Numbered from the stretch's first letter, positions 4,092 through 40,613 are shown. The stretch: DNA of 64,000 bases from Polyangiales bacterium (GCA_044229975.1 JBGARZ010000011.1:290784-354783), one strand, 5' to 3'. Made by a program: numbers and translations. Notes: generated by a model from the letters alone, not told the origin.

Positions 4092-4745
4092 CTACGGGTT
4101 GCGCGGCAGCACGCAGGTCGGCGTGACCCGGTTGAGCAGCGCCTCGTCGTTTTGCAGGCACACCTGGCCCGTCGGGCAGGTGCCGTCGTTGGCGCAACGC
4201 TGGAGGCACACCGAGACCGTCGTCGACGTGGGCGCCGCCGCGCCGATGTAGATCGCCTGGAGCGTCGCGCAGTACGCGTTCGCCCCGTTGGGCAATCCCC
4301 GGCAGTAGGCATCGCCGGCGGTGCCGTACCGGCACGGGGCCGCGCACAGGTTGCCCAGGCAGAGGCCCGTGGTGCAGTTCATGTTGTTGTCGCAGCGCTC
4401 GCCGAGGCGGGCCGTCGCCCCCGCAAACGCCGCCTGGCAGAGGAAGCACACCCGCTCTTCGAGGCAGCTCTGCGCGCCGCCGCACTGCTCCGACAGACCG
4501 CAGTCGTTGTCGCTGCGGCACTCGTTGCGCTGCCGCAGCTCGGGGTCGCGGCACGTGCGACCCGTCGCTCCCACGAGGCACCGGCCGCCGTTGTAACAGG
4601 CCACCTCGTCGCAGCACGGACCGCCGTTTTGCCCGCAGTCCGTTCGCACGGGCGTGTCGTGCCAGTCGTCGCCGCCGCAACCGAGCGCCAATGCCGACAG
4701 CACCAGCGCCCACCCGCGCGCCCTCGCGATGGTCTTCGTGGACAT
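4092..4745 (-). CDS. Cys-rich lipoprotein
   Basis: Lipobox LALGC, numerous Cys repeats. Confidence 0.75.
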   Translation of the reverse strand: MSTKTIARARGWALVLSALALGCGGDDWHDTPVRTDCGQNGGPCCDEVACYNGGRCLVGATGRTCRDPELRQRNECRSDNDCGLSEQCGGAQSCLEERVCFLCQAAFAGATARLGERCDNNMNCTTGLCLGNLCAAPCRYGTAGDAYCRGLPNGANAYCATLQAIYIGAAAPTSTTVSVCLQRCANDGTCPTGQVCLQNDEALLNRVTPTCVLPRNP

Positions 4746-4864
4746 CAACGCGGGATGCTCGCACGCGCAGGAAAAGTGCTCAACCCACGGGCGACCATCG
4801 CGACCGTCATGAACGCCGACAAGTCCGTTGACCGTCGCACCGCCGTGGGTGTCCCTTCGAAGCC

Positions 4865-7279
4865 ATGAGGTCCCCGATGCGTCACGGTTTCGCCAGCGCC
4901 CTGCTCGTGCTCGCGCTCTCCCTCGCAGCCTGTAGCAGCGGCAACTCGGTCGTCGGTGGCGGCGACGCCGGCTCCGTCGTCGACCTCGGCGCGTCCGACC
5001 TCGGCCTCCCCGATGTGCCGTCGCCCATGGATGTTCTGCCCCCCATGGACGCGCCCGACGTCCCGGCGCCGATGGACACACCCGATGTTCTGCCCGTCGA
5101 CAACGGGCCCGCGCGCTGCGCCGCCGACGGCGACTGCGTGGGCAACGCCGGCGGCCCCGCCTGCGACGTCACCTCGGGCCGCTGCGTGACGTGCACCACT
5201 GCTTCCGACCGCTGCCCCGCAGGCCAGTACTGCGTCGGCGCCACCAACACCTGCGCCAGCGGGTGCCGCGACGACGCCGCCTGCAACACGGGCGGCGCGC
5301 CCGACGGCGGCGCCTCGTCGTCGCGGCGCTGCGACACCGCCACGCACGCCTGCGTCGACTGCCTCACCGACGATCACTGCCCCTCCGGAACCCTCTGCGT
5401 CGGCAACCTCTGCGTCGCCGGCTGCAACGCCGGCCGCGCGTGCCCCGCCACGCAGACGTGCTGCTCCGGCGCGTGCGTCGACGCGCAGTCCAACAGCGCC
5501 CACTGCGGCGTGTGCGAGCGACGGTGCATGGTGGCCAACGCGGTTCCGCTGTGCCTCAACGGGGGGTGCGCCATCGTCGCCTGCGTCGCGCCCTTCGGCG
5601 ACTGCGACGGGATGGCGGCCAACGGCTGCGAGGTCGACACCTCGCGCGACACGGCCCACTGCGGCGGCTGCGGCATGGCCTGCGCCACGCGGCCCAACAC
5701 CATCACGAGCTGCGCGGGCGGCGCCTGCGCGTACGCCTGCGCGACGGGCTTCGCCAACTGCGACGGTGACCCGAGCAACGGCTGCGAGGCCGACGTCCGC
5801 GTGAGCACCACGAACTGCGGCGGCTGCGGCGTGCGCTGCTCCCCGGTCAACGCGACGGCGGCGTGCGTGGCGGGCGCGTGCGGCTACACGGCCTGCGCGG
5901 CGGGCTACGGCGACTGCGACGGCAACGCGGCCAACGGCTGCGAGGCCGACCTGCCGGTCTCGGTGAGCCACTGCGGCGCGTGCGGCAACCGCTGCCCGGC
6001 GACGGCCAACGCGGCGCCGGTGTGCGTCGGCGGAACGTGCGGCACGGTCTGCACCGCGGGCTTCGCCGACTGCGACAGCAACCCGGCCAATGGGTGCGAG
6101 GTCGACACGCGCACCGACATCGCCCACTGCGGCGGCTGCGGCCGGCGCTGCGGCGCCGCGGGCGGGGCGCCTACCTGCGTGGCGGGCGGGTGTTCGCTGG
6201 CCTGCGCCGCGGGCTTCGCGGACTGCGACAGCAACGCCACCAACGGGTGCGAGGTCGACACGCGCACCAGCCGCGCGCACTGCGGCGGCTGCGGCATCGC
6301 GTGCGACGCCAACGCGGCCTGCACCGGGAGCTGCGTGTGCAACCCGGGGTACATGGGCAGCGGGCTCGTGTGCGCCGACGTCGACGAGTGCGCGACGGCC
6401 AACGGCGGCTGCGACGCCAACGCGACCTGCCGCAACACCGTCGGGTCGCGCACCTGCACGTGCAACGAGGCGTACACGGGCGACGGCGTGACGTGCGCGC
6501 CGGTGATCATCGACCTCACCATCGCGGCCAGCACCACGGCGTACAACGTGTTTCTCCAGGCGGGGGCGCCGATGATCCCGCGCGTGGTGCGGGTGACGGT
6601 GAACCCGGGCGTGGTGGTGAGCTCGACGAGCACGGGCGTTCCGGCGCTGGTCTCGGGCGCCTTCCGCGCGGGCTCCGAGCTGCGCATCGTCAACCGCGGA
6701 ACCATCACCGGCGCGGGCGGCGCGGGCGGCGCGGGCGGCGGCTTCTCGGGCGCCGGCCCCAACCCGCAGAGCGCGGGTGGGGCGGGCGGCGCGGCGATCT
6801 CGACGACGACGCGCCTGGTCATCGACAACACCGCAGGCAACATCTGGGGCGGCGGCGGTGGCGGCGGCGGCGGCGCGGTGGCGACCATCACCAACGTGCT
6901 CGCGGGCGGCGGCGGTGGCGGCGGCGGCGCGGGCACGACGGCGGGCGGCGGCGGCGCGGCGGGCCCGGCGTTTTCGGGCGCGCAATACCCGGTGGGGTAT
7001 GCGGGCGGCGCGGGTTCGGCGAGCGCGGGCGGCGCGGGCGGCGCGGGCGGCAACAGCGGGACGTACCCGCGGCAGTACGACGGCAGCGGTCGCGGGCTGG
7101 GTGGCGCGGGCGGCGCGGGCGGCGGACCGGGTCAGGCGGGCGGTCGCGGTGGCGACGGCAACCTCGGGGGCGCGGGCATGGCAGGCGGCGCGGCGGGCAA
7201 CGCCATCGTGCTCAACGGCAACACCGTGACGTGGATGGGCGGGGACAACAGCACGCAGGTGCGCGGGCCGGTGAACTGA
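4865..7279 (+). CDS. Surface lipoprotein: Cys-rich repeats + Ca-binding EGF-like + C-terminal gp38-like Gly-rich adhesin domain
   Basis: Lipobox LAAC; repeated CDG..NGCE.D....HCGGCG units; DVDEC EGF-Ca motif; Gly-rich motif domain from about 6503. Confidence 0.85.
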   Translation: MRSPMRHGFASALLVLALSLAACSSGNSVVGGGDAGSVVDLGASDLGLPDVPSPMDVLPPMDAPDVPAPMDTPDVLPVDNGPARCAADGDCVGNAGGPACDVTSGRCVTCTTASDRCPAGQYCVGATNTCASGCRDDAACNTGGAPDGGASSSRRCDTATHACVDCLTDDHCPSGTLCVGNLCVAGCNAGRACPATQTCCSGACVDAQSNSAHCGVCERRCMVANAVPLCLNGGCAIVACVAPFGDCDGMAANGCEVDTSRDTAHCGGCGMACATRPNTITSCAGGACAYACATGFANCDGDPSNGCEADVRVSTTNCGGCGVRCSPVNATAACVAGACGYTACAAGYGDCDGNAANGCEADLPVSVSHCGACGNRCPATANAAPVCVGGTCGTVCTAGFADCDSNPANGCEVDTRTDIAHCGGCGRRCGAAGGAPTCVAGGCSLACAAGFADCDSNATNGCEVDTRTSRAHCGGCGIACDANAACTGSCVCNPGYMGSGLVCADVDECATANGGCDANATCRNTVGSRTCTCNEAYTGDGVTCAPVIIDLTIAASTTAYNVFLQAGAPMIPRVVRVTVNPGVVVSSTSTGVPALVSGAFRAGSELRIVNRGTITGAGGAGGAGGGFSGAGPNPQSAGGAGGAAISTTTRLVIDNTAGNIWGGGGGGGGGAVATITNVLAGGGGGGGGAGTTAGGGGAAGPAFSGAQYPVGYAGGAGSASAGGAGGAGGNSGTYPRQYDGSGRGLGGAGGAGGGPGQAGGRGGDGNLGGAGMAGGAAGNAIVLNGNTVTWMGGDNSTQVRGPVN

Positions 7280-7295
7280 CGGCGATGGCCGCGGG

Positions 7296-7457
7296 TCACT
7301 CCAGCTCGTTGGTGATCTCGATGGGGCTGCCGACGATCTGGCCGTCGGTGGCGGTGCCCGTGCGGGAGAAGGTCGAGTAGCGCGTGTCGCCGTCGAGGTC
7401 GCCGATGGCGGTGACGGTGAAGGAGGCGTTGGCGCCCGTTCCGGCTACGGTGGTTTC
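7296..7457 (-). pseudogene. C-terminal remnant of a type IV pilin-like gene
   Basis: ASFTVTAIGDLDGDTRYSTFSRTG...EITNELE* resembles the myxobacterial pilin C-terminus; in-frame TAG immediately upstream, no start or prepilin signal. Confidence 0.6.
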
Positions 7458-7506
7458 CTACTGAGGAGATCGACTTCTTCTCTGCTTCCAACGTCGCACA
7501 GTTCGC

Positions 7507-7746
7507 CGCGTCCACGCCGGAGTTCACCGTGCCGCCCCCGCGCCCGTCACGCTCGGTTCACTCCGGGCTATTTCACGCGGATCGCCCCGCCGCAGCGGGG
7601 CTCCGTGCCTCCGTCCAGGGACGACAGAATGCCTTCAGGTGGGCCTCCTGAGCCCCGCTGCGGCGGGGCGATCCGCGTGAAATAGCCCGGAGTGAACCGA
7701 GCGTGACGGGCGCGGGGGCGGCACGGTGAACTCCGGCGTGGACGCG
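7507..7746. repeat. Long palindrome A (REP-doublet/REPIN-like): 97-bp arms, 46-bp spacer
   Basis: 7507-7603 is the reverse complement of 7650-7746. Confidence 0.95.
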
Positions 7747-7754
7747 ACGGGTTC

Positions 7755-10271: not shown

Positions 10272-12611
10272 TCAGCGCGCGACGCAGAGCGCGAAGCGAC
10301 CGGAGACGGTGTTGCCGACGGAGCACCACGACGACGACTCGGCGCCGCACGACGCGGTGTTGCCGATCCAGTGGGTGCCCATGTACTGGTAGACGCCGAA
10401 GAGGGCGGGGCACTGGGGCGGATCGGTGCCGCAGAGGGTCTGCGCGAGGCGCTGCATGGGATTGCCGCAGCTGTTCTCGAAGTTCATCTGGCGGCAGAGG
10501 CCGTCGTTGTAGGTGCAGCCCGACACGCCGGTGCAAGGCGCCGTGAGCCCCGCGCCGTTGCACGCCGCCAGCACGTTGGCGTCCGTCAACAACCCCGGCA
10601 CCGGAACCCGGTACCATGTGATGCCGCCCGCCACGCCGACCACCGTCGCCGACACGCACGACCCGCTGGTGCAGGTGCCCGACGAGCAGACGTTGCCGCA
10701 CGACCCGCAGTTGGTGTTGTCCGACGAGAGCGTGCGGCACACCCCCGAGCAGTTGGTCTGCCCCGCGCCGCACACCACCACGCACGACCCGCCCACGCAC
10801 GCGCGCCCGGCGCCGCACGCGTTGCCGCAGGCGCCGCAGTGGCTGGCGTCCGTGCTCGTGTCGCGGCACGCCCCGCTGCACAGCGCGAGCCCCGCGCCGC
10901 ACACCGACCCGCAGACGCCCGCCGAGCACACGCGCCCCGCGCCGCACGCCGTCCCGCACGCGCCGCAGTTGGCGTTGTCCGTCGCGAGCGAGCGGCACAC
11001 GCCCGAGCAGTTGCTCGTCCCGGCCGTGCACGACACCACGCACGACCCACCCACGCAGCGGTTGCCCGCCGGGCAGACGTTGGTGCAGCTCCCGCAGCGG
11101 TTGACGTCCGTCTGGAGGTCGCGGCACACGCCGTCGCAGGCGTTGAGCCCGCTGGCGCACACCACCTCGCAGCGGCCCGCCGTGCAGACCTGGCCCGCGA
11201 TGCAGGTCGTCCCGCACGCGCCGCAGTTCTCGCGGTCGCGCAGCAGGTCGCGGCACGTCCCGCCGCAGTTGGTCGTTCCGCCGCCGCACGACAGCGTGCA
11301 CACGCCCGCCGAGCACACCTGGCCCGTCGTGCACGTGCGCCCGCACGCCCCGCAGTGGGCGCGGTCGGTGGTGAGGTCGCGGCACGTCCCCGAGCACTCG
11401 CTCAGGCCCGCGCCGCAGCTCACGGTGCACACACCCGCCGAGCACACCTGGCCCGCGTCGCAGGTCGTCCCGCACGCGCCGCAGTTGCGGCGATCGGTGT
11501 CGAGGTCGCGGCACGCGCCCGAGCAGTTGCTGAGCCCCGCGCCGCAGCTCACGGTGCACGCCCCCGCCGAGCACACCTGCCCCTCGGCGCACGCCGTCCC
11601 GCACGCGCCGCAGTTTGCGCGGTCGGTCTGCGTGTCGCGGCACGTCCCCGAGCACTCGCTGAGCCCCGCGCCGCAGCTCACGGTGCACACGCCCGCGGAG
11701 CACACCTGACCCGCGGCGCAGGCCGTCCCGCACGCGCCGCAGTTGGCGCGGTCGCTCGCGAGGTCGCGGCACGTCCCGGTGCAGTCCGTGGCGCCGCCCG
11801 CGCACGAGAGAACACACCGCGCATCCGCGCAGATCTGCCCGGCCGCGCAGGCGCTGCCGCACGTCCCGCAGTTGGCGCGGTCGCTGCGGAGGTCACGACA
11901 CGTCCCGGCGCAGTCGCTCAGGCCGGTGACGCACGACACCGCGCAGCGGCCGCCGATGCACACCTGGCCGTCGCCGCAGGCCATGCCGCAGCCGCCGCAG
12001 TGGGAGCGGTCGGTCTGCGTGTCGCGGCACGTCCCCGAGCAGTTCTGCAGGCCGCTCACGCACGACACCACGCAGCGGCCGTCGGTGCAGATCTGCCCGT
12101 CGCCGCAGGCCATCCCGCAGCCGCCGCAGTTGGAGCGGTCGTTGCGCGGGTTGGCGCAGTAGCGCTCGGCGCCCGCGTCGCTGCTCACGTTGATGGGTCC
12201 CTGACAGAGCTGGAGCGACGCGCCGCACTCCAGCGCGCAGCGGCCCATGGCGCAGACGAGGCCCGCGCCGCACGCCGTCCCGCACGCGCCGCAGTTCGAC
12301 CGATCGGTGTCGGTGGTGACGCAGCGATCGCCGCACAGCACCTGCCCCGTCGGGCACGACGCCTGGCAGGCGCCCGCGACGCAGACCTGGGTGCGCGGGC
12401 ACGCGCGGCCGCAGGCGCCGCAGTGGTCGCCGTCGTCCTGGAGCGACACGCACGACCCGCCGCACGCGACCTGCGGCGCGGTGCAGGTGACGTCGAAGCC
12501 GGCGTCCATGGGGGTGACCACGCCGCTGACGAGGGGTTCGCTGCTACAGCCGAGCGCGAGGGCGACGAGGAAGAGGGCGAAAGCGGCGACGGGGGACATG
12601 GTGCGGCGCAT
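10272..12611 (-). CDS. Cys-rich repeat lipoprotein (Stig1-like tandem repeats) with distinct Cys-rich C-terminal tip domain
   Basis: Lipobox LALGC; about 15 roughly 40-aa repeats CSGTCRD...DRANCGACGTAC..GQVC; unique C-terminal 120 aa. Confidence 0.88.
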   Translation of the reverse strand: MRRTMSPVAAFALFLVALALGCSSEPLVSGVVTPMDAGFDVTCTAPQVACGGSCVSLQDDGDHCGACGRACPRTQVCVAGACQASCPTGQVLCGDRCVTTDTDRSNCGACGTACGAGLVCAMGRCALECGASLQLCQGPINVSSDAGAERYCANPRNDRSNCGGCGMACGDGQICTDGRCVVSCVSGLQNCSGTCRDTQTDRSHCGGCGMACGDGQVCIGGRCAVSCVTGLSDCAGTCRDLRSDRANCGTCGSACAAGQICADARCVLSCAGGATDCTGTCRDLASDRANCGACGTACAAGQVCSAGVCTVSCGAGLSECSGTCRDTQTDRANCGACGTACAEGQVCSAGACTVSCGAGLSNCSGACRDLDTDRRNCGACGTTCDAGQVCSAGVCTVSCGAGLSECSGTCRDLTTDRAHCGACGRTCTTGQVCSAGVCTLSCGGGTTNCGGTCRDLLRDRENCGACGTTCIAGQVCTAGRCEVVCASGLNACDGVCRDLQTDVNRCGSCTNVCPAGNRCVGGSCVVSCTAGTSNCSGVCRSLATDNANCGACGTACGAGRVCSAGVCGSVCGAGLALCSGACRDTSTDASHCGACGNACGAGRACVGGSCVVVCGAGQTNCSGVCRTLSSDNTNCGSCGNVCSSGTCTSGSCVSATVVGVAGGITWYRVPVPGLLTDANVLAACNGAGLTAPCTGVSGCTYNDGLCRQMNFENSCGNPMQRLAQTLCGTDPPQCPALFGVYQYMGTHWIGNTASCGAESSSWCSVGNTVSGRFALCVAR

Positions 12612-12769
12612 CGAGAGGGCTCCTTCGGTGGGGAGGAGGGCAGCGTATGCGAAGGGCGCCGACGGGGGCGAGCGGATGATGAAGCGCACCGATGCGCGTC
12701 ATCGGTGACGCGGGCGTTGGCGATGGAGCACTACACCGCGGACGACGAGAAGATCCAACCGAGCGGTTC

Positions 12770-37012: not shown

Positions 37013-37993
37013 TCAGCGGTCGGCTTCGCGCTCGGCCAGGGCGCAAGCGCGCGCTTCGAGGGCCGCACGAACGACGGCCTTGGTGTGACGAGCGATCTGC
37101 CGCGCGTAGGCGGGCTCCTCGCGGGCGACGTCCTGCACGACGCGGCGGACGAGGCGGTCGATGCGCTCGTCGCGCGGGCACTGCCAGCGGCCGCCCTCTG
37201 CGAGGTGCTGCCGCGCGTGGGCGAGCCGCTCGCCGTTGACGACGCGCGCCGCGAAGCCCTCCGCGGTGTCGTCGCTGCCCGGCGTCTCGTCGAGCGCCTC
37301 GCGGCGGTTGGGGTGCTTGTGCTTGGCGACGAGCAGACGACCGGCGCCGTCTCGGAGTGCCGGGTCGCTCCAGATCACGACGCCCTCGTGGGTCGCGTCC
37401 GCGTGACGGGACGAGGCCCCGCGCGACCCGGCGTGCGCCGAAGGGCGATCGAGCAGCGCGTCGAAGCGTTCGGGGTCGGGCGCGCCGCGGTAGAGGCAGG
37501 GCGCGAGGATGAGGCCGGTCTGCGCCGCGAGGTCGCACAGCGAGGGGAGGCGACGCACCGACCCGGCGTCGTCGACGTGGTCGAGCGCGTGCGACCACCC
37601 GAGCCACGCGTCGCCGACCGTGGCCGCGAAGAGCACGAAGTGCGCGGACGGTCCGTAGAGGAAGCCCGTCGCCTGGATGCCGCGACCGCAGGTCTCGCCG
37701 TACAGCGTGAGGTGGTCGGGGAGCGCGCGCGCGACGTCGCGCAGTGACTCGAAGCGCACGTTGGCGACGAAGCCGGCGCGCAGCTCGGGCTGGCAGAAGC
37801 CCTCGTCGCCTTCGAGCAACGACCGCCCGCCGACGACGAGCTGTTCGACGCGGTGGAGGTCGCGCGGGACACCGACGCGGGTGTTGGAGCCGTCGATCTT
37901 TTCGAGGCAGACGACCTCGCGGGCATGGTGAACGGCATCGGCCTCGCCTCGATACGCGGCGATGCAGGGAAACACAGCAGGAACGAACGTCAT
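37013..37993 (-). CDS. RNA ligase, Rnl2-like
   Basis: Motif I EKIDGSN, III LYGE, IV EGVVI, V AKHK, helical C-domain. Confidence 0.82.
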   Translation of the reverse strand: MTFVPAVFPCIAAYRGEADAVHHAREVVCLEKIDGSNTRVGVPRDLHRVEQLVVGGRSLLEGDEGFCQPELRAGFVANVRFESLRDVARALPDHLTLYGETCGRGIQATGFLYGPSAHFVLFAATVGDAWLGWSHALDHVDDAGSVRRLPSLCDLAAQTGLILAPCLYRGAPDPERFDALLDRPSAHAGSRGASSRHADATHEGVVIWSDPALRDGAGRLLVAKHKHPNRREALDETPGSDDTAEGFAARVVNGERLAHARQHLAEGGRWQCPRDERIDRLVRRVVQDVAREEPAYARQIARHTKAVVRAALEARACALAEREADR

Positions 37994-39278: not shown

Positions 39279-40613
39279 CTACCGGGTAGGCGTCTTCTTC
39301 TTCGTCGCGACCTTCTTCTTGGGCGCTGCCTTCTTGGGCGCTGCCTTCTTGGGCGCTGCCTTCTTGGGCGCTGCCTTCTTCTTTGTCGCGGCCTTCTTCG
39401 TCGCGACCTTCTTCGTCGGTGCAGCCTTCTTCGTCGCGGCCTTCTTCGTCGCGACCGTCTTCACCGGCGTCGCGCCCAGCTCGTCGTCCCCGCCCTCCCC
39501 GGAGTGCTCCCAATCGGGAACCTCGTAGAGCAGCTTCGTCCCCGCGACGAGCTTGCGGTTGTACGAGGTGCTCTGGATGAACACGAGGTACTTGTCGAGC
39601 GCCACGGGCTTCACCTTGTCGCGCTCCCCCGGGCGCAACCCGATGAGCGCGCGCGCCTTGTCGCCCGAGTAGAAGTCGCCCGACTCCTTGTCCATCAGCA
39701 CGACCTCCTTGCCCTCCTGAACGAGCTCGGACTTGGTGAGCTGGTAGAAGCCGCGACCCGGGTTGAAGCTCGCGCCCTCCCCCTCGATGAACGTGCGGAT
39801 GTCCGCCACCGCGTCGACGTCGAGCACCTGGAAGCGACCCGCCGAGACGGGCTCCAGCTTCCCCGTCACCTTCACCGTCGACGCCTTCCCCTTCGCCGAC
39901 GCCGACGCCGATGCCTTCGCCTTGCGGCCGAGCATGGTGTCGAACATCCGCCGGAGCGAGCCGTTCATCCGGCGCGCCTTGGTGACCTCGGCCTCGTACG
40001 CGCCGAGGTGCTCGTCGCCGTGCTGCTTGAACGCGACGGCCTGGATGAGGTCGGTGATGTACGAGAACTGGTCGAGCGTGAGGTAGAGCCCGTCGGTGCG
40101 CCGGGCGACCTCCTCGTAGAACCCCTTCGAGTGCTTGCGGATGCCCGGCATCGCGTGCACGCCGTAGACCTTCACGCCCGCCTCGGTGAGCAGGTCGAGT
40201 TCGTTCTTCCAATCGAGCTTGAGCTTGTTGGCCGGGTACTTCGGGCCGTGCGGCACGTCGTCGCCGATGAGCACGAACACCTTGGCCCGACCCGCGCGCC
40301 ACTTCTGCGACCGCGCCGTGTAGAGCGCGTACTCGTACGCCTCGGGCGCGTCGCCGCCATAGGTCCCCTTCACCGTCTTGATGAACTTCAGCACCGACGC
40401 CTGGTTGTCGGTGAGGTCGACCTTCTTCAAGAGGTACTGGCGCTTCTCGTCGCAGTAGTCGCCGTGCGCCATCACGCCCACGCGCAGGCCCGGGATCTCC
40501 TTGAACAACCTCCGCACCGCGGCGTCGGCGTTGCGCCGGAGCTGCGTGAGGCACGGGTACATGCTGCCGGTGGTGTCGAAGCTGATCACCACGTCGATCG
40601 CGTCGGCGCTCAT
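39279..40613 (-). CDS. vWA domain protein with conserved C-domain and histone H1-like PKKAA tail
   Basis: MIDAS FDTTGSM, HGDYCD, GGDAPEAYE, IGDDVPH; GRGFYQLTK domain; 15-bp tandem repeats near 39300-39450. Confidence 0.88.
   Translation of the reverse strand: MSADAIDVVISFDTTGSMYPCLTQLRRNADAAVRRLFKEIPGLRVGVMAHGDYCDEKRQYLLKKVDLTDNQASVLKFIKTVKGTYGGDAPEAYEYALYTARSQKWRAGRAKVFVLIGDDVPHGPKYPANKLKLDWKNELDLLTEAGVKVYGVHAMPGIRKHSKGFYEEVARRTDGLYLTLDQFSYITDLIQAVAFKQHGDEHLGAYEAEVTKARRMNGSLRRMFDTMLGRKAKASASASAKGKASTVKVTGKLEPVSAGRFQVLDVDAVADIRTFIEGEGASFNPGRGFYQLTKSELVQEGKEVVLMDKESGDFYSGDKARALIGLRPGERDKVKPVALDKYLVFIQSTSYNRKLVAGTKLLYEVPDWEHSGEGGDDELGATPVKTVATKKAATKKAAPTKKVATKKAATKKKAAPKKAAPKKAAPKKAAPKKKVATKKKTPTR

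Follow-up and report, generated by a model that had tools for sequence, protein, structure and literature searches.

Organization of the gene

The window analyzed here is a 64,000-nucleotide stretch from a Polyangiales bacterium (GCA_044229975.1, JBGARZ010000011.1:290784-354783), and the subject of this report is an open reading frame (ORF) at positions 4865-7279 (+), predicted to encode a lipoprotein with a Cys-rich stalk and a C-terminal head similar to the phage adhesin gp38. An initial annotation, made from the DNA alone, had described a phage adhesin on a bacterial lipoprotein stalk, domesticated by a likely predatory myxobacterium for the recognition of prey or kin. Translation of the window gave a protein of 804 amino acids from a genuine coding gene; the orthologues start at the Met that is residue 5 of the ORF. 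The features of the gene are given below, invariance of loops being counted over 22 full heads taken from 24 close orthologue proteins.

4865-7279, +, whole gene, lipoprotein with gp38-like head; likely start Met5 at 4877, codon score and third-position GC content (GC3) typical of the genome
4865-4933, +, putative signal peptide with lipobox LAAC (Cys23)
4934-5116, +, Asp/Pro-rich linker (residues 24-84), least conserved on the stalk side (57% identity among genus orthologues)
5117-6316, +, Cys-rich stalk (residues 85-484), five to six repeats of about 52 residues, MXAN_6577-like below the cut-off
6317-6496, +, EGF-like modules (residues 485-544), with EGF_3 at 509-544 and a Ca-EGF-type DVDEC motif
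6497-7276, +, gp38-like head (residues 545-804), predicted beta-helix and polyglycine-II sandwich without the phage attachment domain
6743-6772, +, distal loop 1 (residues 627-636), the one loop with clear variation, in the form of substitutions at nearly constant length
6878-6904, +, distal loop 2 (residues 672-680), conserved NVL(A/G) core
6971-6994, +, distal loop 3 (residues 703-710), invariant in 22/22 full orthologue heads, motif also in the Burkholderia protein P0249
7058-7099, +, distal loop 4 (residues 732-745), conserved G-x-YP-x-Q-aromatic core
7154-7168, +, distal loop 5 (residues 764-768), invariant in 22/22 full orthologue heads

The lipobox named in the initial annotation is present, LAAC ending at Cys23, and this Cys was invariant in 8/8 rows of an alignment of the protein (A1). 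Signal peptide and lipobox were read as motifs rather than called by a predictor, and the protein is likely a lipoprotein anchored by its lipid in the outer membrane and displayed outward. Residues 85-544 contain 74 of its 75 Cys. The disulfide-rich repeats and the EGF-Ca module of the initial annotation were both found, but this Cys-rich part spans about 460 residues, not 500. Five repeats of about 156 nt lie at 5542-6310, Pfam EGF_3 matched with E 3.9e-12, and EGF_CA is a precomputed assignment on orthologue P0003. The stalk repeats resemble those of MXAN_6577-like Cys-rich proteins (NCBIfam NF041328; E 1.3e-18, 67.2 bits, short of the curated cut-off of 100) and STIG1-like repeats, a family that covers the stalk only.

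The head is homologous to phage gp38

The head comprises 260 amino acids from position 6497, of which 32% are Gly and none is Cys, and it contains all the motifs first quoted for it, in the quoted order. The query head matched tail-fiber families of PHROG (phrog_11439, E 1.7e-9; phrog_2056, 'host specificity', E 1.1e-5). Used alone, it gave no match to Pfam GP38 (PF05268), and in a phmmer search of the Protein Data Bank (PDB) it did not match S16 gp38 (6F45), the only match being collagen-like at E 0.14. Among its relatives, close orthologues included, the precomputed PF05268 label was carried by 92/92 proteins of one set and by all 120 listed of 200 in another. A 119-row profile (A2) consisted of the head and 118 of those 120 proteins (P0033 and P0179 left out). 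Its only PDB matches under E 0.01 were PP01 gp38 (9V85, E 2.2e-9) and S16 gp38 (6F45, E 3.6e-8), and 78/119 members matched PF05268 at E<=1. All 30 Atlas matches fell in a GP38 set (best 0.95), and hhalign of a further alignment (A4) against one T-even gp38 gave a probability of 46 over 95 columns. By these profile matches the head is homologous to gp38, as had been proposed.

An AlphaFold model of the head with the 119-row alignment reached a predicted local distance difference test score (pLDDT) of 94.9 and a predicted TM-score (pTM) of 0.91; from the single sequence the pLDDT was 38. Among 48,161 chains compared, the model aligned with 6F45_D (VIA) at Z 22.9 and a root-mean-square deviation of 2.8 over 202 residues (chain range 43-249) and with 9V85_C at Z 21.9 (chain range 43-259), the next, unrelated fold having Z 8.7. 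In Foldseek only 9V85 and 6F45 fell under E 0.001, with TM-scores of 0.47-0.56, and a springtail antifreeze protein stood at E 3.9; viral predicted structures gave TM-scores of up to 0.72 against the model. The head is thus predicted to adopt the gp38 beta-helix and the polyglycine-II (PGII) sandwich that the initial annotation had expected. It shares with gp38 of T2/T6/S16/PP01-type Straboviridae (PF05268; 6F45_D, 9V85) the ten Gly-rich motifs, the five distal loops in the same order and the C-terminal strand pattern; motifs and loops were mapped by sequence, not from model coordinates, and fit the profile alignment to 6F45 and 9V85. A two-copy complex prediction scored 0.00, which says nothing either way.

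Unlike gp38, the head lacks the N-terminal attachment domain, sits on a lipoprotein stalk, is chromosomally encoded and has conserved rather than hypervariable loops. In gp38, residues 1-42 form the domain that docks the protein onto gp37 (PMC6851490). This domain, helical and with three Trp, is absent here: the alignment to 6F45_D begins at residue 43, and an EGF module stands in its place. Nor is the context of a gp37-type tail-fiber locus present, as no structural phage family occurs among the 40 ORFs of the window.

Generic low complexity was rejected as an account of the Gly-rich head, given its superposition on gp38 and the behavior of 11 other heads of the genome with more than 25% Gly, which did not match the gp38 profile. 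PE_PGRS was likewise rejected. Glycine-rich bundles of polyproline-II (PPII) helices and PE_PGRS proteins have Gly-rich PPII/PGII helices in common with the head (PMC13243192; bioRxiv 10.1101/2023.11.25.568672), but PE_PGRS proteins combine an N-terminal PE domain with a long PGRS bilayer, whereas no PE match was obtained in Pfam and the compact head superposes on gp38. The best structural match was gp38 and not a generic PE-PGRS or low-complexity sequence.

Genomic context, distribution and origin

The genome (10.0 Mb, 39 contigs) contains 43 MYXO-CTERM matches, none of them at the stalk-head gene, and the orthologue records are labeled Myxococcales, Myxococcaceae or Deltaproteobacteria. From these matches and labels, the host is of Myxococcota type; the predatory lifestyle supposed at first is conjectural. 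Among the 40 window ORFs, which came mostly from a codon-score gene caller, 10 had a PHROG match at E<=1e-6 and none belonged to a head, tail, lysis or integration category, in agreement with the earlier remark that no phage genes lie nearby. The GC3 of the head equals the genome mean of 0.93. On this sequence evidence the gene is chromosomal and non-prophage, and a prophage remnant was rejected because structural phage families are missing from the window.

The head gene is single-copy in this genome. It was present in 9/9 genomes of the genus and in 0/22 genomes of the family's other genera, some of which are incomplete. In a phylum sample, with at most five candidates scored per genome, it was found in 14/401 genomes, on several unrelated stalks. 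A 'class' sample gave 1/301, from which no taxonomic conclusion was drawn. Seven relatives share one locus, flanked by a gene that we take, from sequence motifs, to be kinase-like and by housekeeping genes taken in the same way to be GTPase-like, while this genome (G000) and G006 carry the gene elsewhere. In G000 the usual site of the relatives (C39:140187-140623) is empty and holds a long inverted-repeat element of about 420 nt, different from the one described below. Identity to the orthologues was 72-76%, at the lower range of neighboring genes (most 60-92%), which agrees with acquisition at about the base of the genus and later descent within it.

Since most relatives of the head look like phage proteins, the most economical view would be that the fold came from a phage. 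The query itself fell into a 13-row group of cellular or fragmentary proteins (FastTree support 84); most deep forks of the head trees were open, and the trees did not settle the direction of transfer. A tblastn search of phages with the head gave no match, and scans of IMG/VR with the head, A4, P0249 and a loop-4 DNA pattern found no gp38-like relative (0/37 loci matching the profile). A scan of GTDB contigs with the A2 profile was also without a match. Gain from another bacterium appears as possible as direct capture from a phage. Of the proposed domestication of a phage adhesin, the resident chromosomal gene under purifying selection held up; direct phage capture is no more than possible, as the nearest relatives are cellular proteins and no close viral copy was found in these searches.

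gp38 heads occur on many bacterial carriers and are not special to myxobacteria; beyond Myxococcota they stand at the end of proteins that contain Ig-like, TIG, pilin-type or SpvB/FG-GAP regions. Eight secreted proteins of SpvB/FG-GAP/TcdB-midN type end in such a head (P0008, P0014, P0018, P0023, P0026, P0029, P0030 and P0042), one of them named Polaromonas sp. A23. Fusions of gp38-like heads to proteins of Flp pilin and N-methyl pilin type (P0104 and P0231) suggest use as pilus-tip adhesins. P0218, P0223, P0225 and P0226 look secreted and carry two or three tandem gp38-like heads with differing loops; P0223 and P0225 begin with what we take to be an archaeal class III-like signal motif.

The distal loops are conserved

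Receptor binding by gp38 occurs through its distal loops (PMC12892980, PMC6851490, PMC12032242), and hypervariable loops had been expected here as well. Selection on the head was estimated from seven genus sequences, five of them with a full head, by pairwise counts that are non-independent; the ratio of nonsynonymous to synonymous change (dN/dS) was 0.27 for the beta-helix, 0.19 for the Gly motifs and 0.41 for the loops. Loop 3 had zero amino-acid change at a proportion of synonymous differences (pS) of 0.50, and loop 5 had none, while dN/dS was 0.19 in loop 4 and 0.68 in loop 2. In 10 genus pairs, loop identity (0.72-0.93) tracked beta-helix identity (0.75-0.92). A control of 13 T-even gp38 proteins (78 pairs) behaved differently, with a mean loop identity of 0.27 in the 54 pairs having beta-helix identities of 0.74-0.92 (mean 0.83). 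By these comparisons the head is under purifying selection, its distal loops are not hypervariable, and loops 2-5 are conserved, contrary to the initial annotation. Diversification of a diversity-generating retroelement type was rejected, as the gene is single-copy and no second head-like template was found in the genome.

This conservation bears on two other accounts of the protein. A polymorphic kin-recognition receptor with homotypic binding like that of TraA would fit the single copy, the Cys-rich stalk, the Myxococcota host and the differences in loop 1 between species. TraA specificity, however, requires a highly polymorphic domain (PMC6372800), while in the present protein conservation extends to four of the five loops between species and to three between phyla, leaving room for polymorphism in loop 1 only. 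The resemblance to TraA lies in a Myxococcota protein with a recognition domain on a Cys-rich repeat stalk; the polymorphic domain of TraA is PA14-like and N-terminal, and TraA also has a MYXO-CTERM anchor and a TraB partner (PMC6372800), whereas the present protein has an N-terminal lipobox and a conserved C-terminal head, with no MYXO-CTERM tail and no TraB-like neighbor seen. Kin recognition, put forward at the outset, is accordingly very unlikely. Still harder to sustain is the view of the head as a relic of a phage gene, or as a Gly-rich cap that is purely structural and binds nothing. The missing direct Pfam GP38 match of the query and a frameshifted head in genome G002 would suit it, but the gene is kept throughout the genus with dN/dS <1 and the unchanged loop 3, and it has no prophage context.

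A loop class shared by distant taxa

Searched with a profile, 1.84 billion representatives yielded 4,320 matches at E<=0.001, with a listing of the 150 best. The loop comparison covered 170 heads, namely non-redundant rows scoring at least 120 with almost complete cover, 10 genome loci and 4 T-even rows. At 21 loop-core positions, 14/170 heads had an identity of at least 50%, against a median of 14%; two of the 14 are genus rows, and the other 12 have only 25-49% beta-helix identity. The carriers are other Myxococcota-type EGF lipoproteins, Burkholderia ubonensis Ig-repeat proteins and look-alikes, and the proteins P0220 and P0230. P0249, by its record from Burkholderia ubonensis, agreed at 17/21 loop positions with 34% scaffold identity (binomial p 1.4e-5); in a comparison with plasmids only its Ig repeats matched. 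P0220 is a lipoprotein that clusters with a Bdellovibrio sp. record. P0230, of 1,771 amino acids, has strong virion/tail-fiber PHROG matches (E 7e-144) and is probably a virion protein of a phage. Within the set, the loop class was absent from short, stand-alone phage-like proteins; the only one labeled as such, P0094, is an orthologue fragment. When the 20-row loop class was constrained to one clade, approximately unbiased (AU) tests returned p 0.24 for beta-helix columns and 0.58 for sandwich columns; exchange of a loop cassette was therefore neither demonstrated nor excluded.

The sharing of loops is relevant to the possibility of a ligand in the producer's envelope, either an outer-membrane protein or lipopolysaccharide (LPS), which the head would bind in the periplasm, on vesicles or at the surface, for example to mask a phage receptor or to organize an envelope complex. 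A conserved self-ligand would likewise give conserved loops, a phage-type protein has the loops in common, and the lipoprotein topology leaves room for it. Yet carriers of different phyla have the same loops, so that all of them would need to possess this ligand. The stalk of 460 residues would better suit outward reach, and there is no conserved partner gene, the neighbors differing between three loci in the genus. Binding to the own envelope is, on balance, improbable.

A stalk-and-head repertoire

A six-frame motif scan of the genome yielded 93 ORFs with the stalk repeat. After removal of 12 short-tailed ORFs and one overlapping ORF, the 80 with a tail of at least 130 residues formed 45 head clusters, in which the gp38 head stood alone in its own cluster. 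A Pfam match was obtained for 15/40 scanned heads (of the 79 others), fibrinogen-like, FGE-sulfatase, RCC1, FG-GAP and LamG-type domains among them. The eleven stalk proteins with Gly-rich (>25%) heads outside the gp38 profile gave no Pfam match where scanned and include, in G000, C2:102541-105180, C11:180183-182300, C20:401708-405019 and C35:111908-116353; their heads are possibly further polyglycine-II domain types. Another member of the repertoire lies in the window at 10272-12689 (-), an 805-residue lipoprotein whose Cys repeats, about 14 in number, are STIG1-like/MXAN_6577-like and whose C-terminal head has no annotation.

Proposed function

Given these observations, it is proposed, with a probability of about 0.5, that the protein is held in the outer membrane by its lipid anchor, that the disulfide-bonded stalk acts as a spacer holding out the gp38-like head, and that the ligand of loops 2-5 is a single conserved structure carried by other bacteria. 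The five distal loops would form the binding face, as in S16 and PP01 gp38, and the conserved tip loops would grip a single common surface structure. Because the same loops occur on a Bdellovibrio lipoprotein, on Burkholderia-type Ig-repeat proteins and on a probable phage virion protein, the putative ligand is sought on other Gram-negative cells, where it may be a conserved outer-membrane protein surface or an LPS-core-type glycan. With about 45 head types mounted on this stalk, the protein would be a single attachment probe of many, probably in part redundant.

Several points weigh against this proposal. The lipobox is silent on which face of the envelope carries the protein. Loop 1 does vary, with a dN/dS of 1.3 on ten codons, and the orthologue L018 (G002:C172, 7591-10092, -; the same as P0007) has frameshifts in its Gly-rich head and is either a pseudogene or an assembly error. 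Agreement at 14/21 loop positions carries weak binomial support for P0220 (p 0.08) and, taken by itself, for P0230 (p 0.016). A viral origin of P0230 is supported by profile matches and by two partial viral relatives, but its own contig does not enter into the argument. Furthermore, the 21 loop positions were chosen after viewing alignment A4, which held L042, L043 and L045; A4 also seeded the search, so that L042, L043 and L045 are non-independent and the 170-row set is enriched for the loop class. The invariant Phe/Tyr in loops 3 and 4 could be structural, as in PP01 gp38, where Tyr209 and Tyr159 are proposed to hold other loops in place (PMC12892980). As to predation, M. xanthus-type contact-killing genes are conserved only in Myxococcaceae (PMC11821767).

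The same aromatic residues would also suit a glycan or matrix adhesin, the loops stacking on a common polysaccharide (floc exopolymer, chitin, cellulose, or a fungal or protist wall) and fixing the cell to its substratum or to a particle of food, not to bacterial prey. Lectin-type families account for many of the other heads carried by this stalk, and both runs with a share of at least 0.2 were wastewater/sludge metagenomes. To our knowledge, the Burkholderia carriers are not predators, which was also counted in favor of this alternative. In PP01, loop B may contact LPS sugars (PMC12892980). However, the occurrence of the loops on probable phage protein P0230 and on the Bdellovibrio protein is a better fit to a bacterial surface, and characterized gp38 proteins bind outer-membrane proteins or LPS (PMC12032242, PMC12892980). 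A glycan or matrix adhesin is therefore considered possible but unlikely. Attachment to other bacterial cells, the preferred reading, could be taken further: loops 2-4 would be one gp38 specificity cassette for a structure common to many Gram-negatives, passed between phage, Bdellovibrio, several Myxococcota lineages and Burkholderiales, each with its own stalk, and predators, equipped with a large library of interchangeable heads, would detect a wide range of prey through the receptor-binding face of a phage. This extension is speculative and rather doubtful.

A close parallel in logic is provided by the Bdellovibrio MAT fiber adhesins, which likewise have a shared presenting end and many tips, some of them phage-like, and have been proposed for prey recognition (PMC10769870). 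MATs are trimeric fibers with a conserved N-terminal domain and an S74 or capping tip, some of them having S74 chaperones, whereas the present protein combines a lipobox, a disulfide-rich stalk and a gp38-type tip. In the accessible text of PMC12032242, PMC6851490 and PMC12892980, gp38 is described only as a phage tail-tip adhesin with hypervariable loops. A literature search, with most subscription papers and supplements outside its scope, turned up no account of gp38 domains in cellular surface proteins, and the main text of PMC9210967 on fibrillar adhesins does not contain 'gp38'. An automatic UniRef name already terms a Burkholderia protein 'Gp38 domain-containing', and the fusion is therefore not unique. 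In the present gene the gp38 fold appears as a stable cellular module, probably at the surface, with a fixed putative binding face common to distant bacteria and a probable phage protein; a match to gp38 or Pfam GP38 is by itself not a marker of a prophage. If the face does bind other cells, the head would be a small, Cys-free and probably monomeric probe of prey attachment by uncultured Myxococcota and Bdellovibrio, and would point to a broadly conserved receptor that could be found by pull-down, a ligand hunt that the conserved cross-taxon loop class makes feasible.

Neighboring features of the window

The stalk-head gene has as neighbors miaA and a small ORF that is Cys-rich and lipoprotein-like. 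No promoter of sigma-70 type was found. In one RNA run of four, contig pieces over 4700-6700 were short and had roughly 8-15% differing letters among the listed pieces; they were therefore not taken as expression of the gene. Downstream, 7281-7445 (-) is a 49-codon fragment convergent with the stalk-head gene and broken off near a repeat element; it has six related stretches elsewhere in the genome and presumably resembles the C-terminus of a pilin-like protein. At 7504-7749 lies a near-perfect inverted repeat of 100 nt (99% complementary, 46-nt spacer, fold z -22), inside a repeated element with 19 genome copies at E<=1e-40 that may be labeled MITE-like or REP-like from its sequence. Farther along, an RNA-ligase-like ORF at 37016-37993 (-; phrog_548, E 2.4e-12) lies near an ORF at 39282-40613 that, from a motif, we take to be vWA-like.

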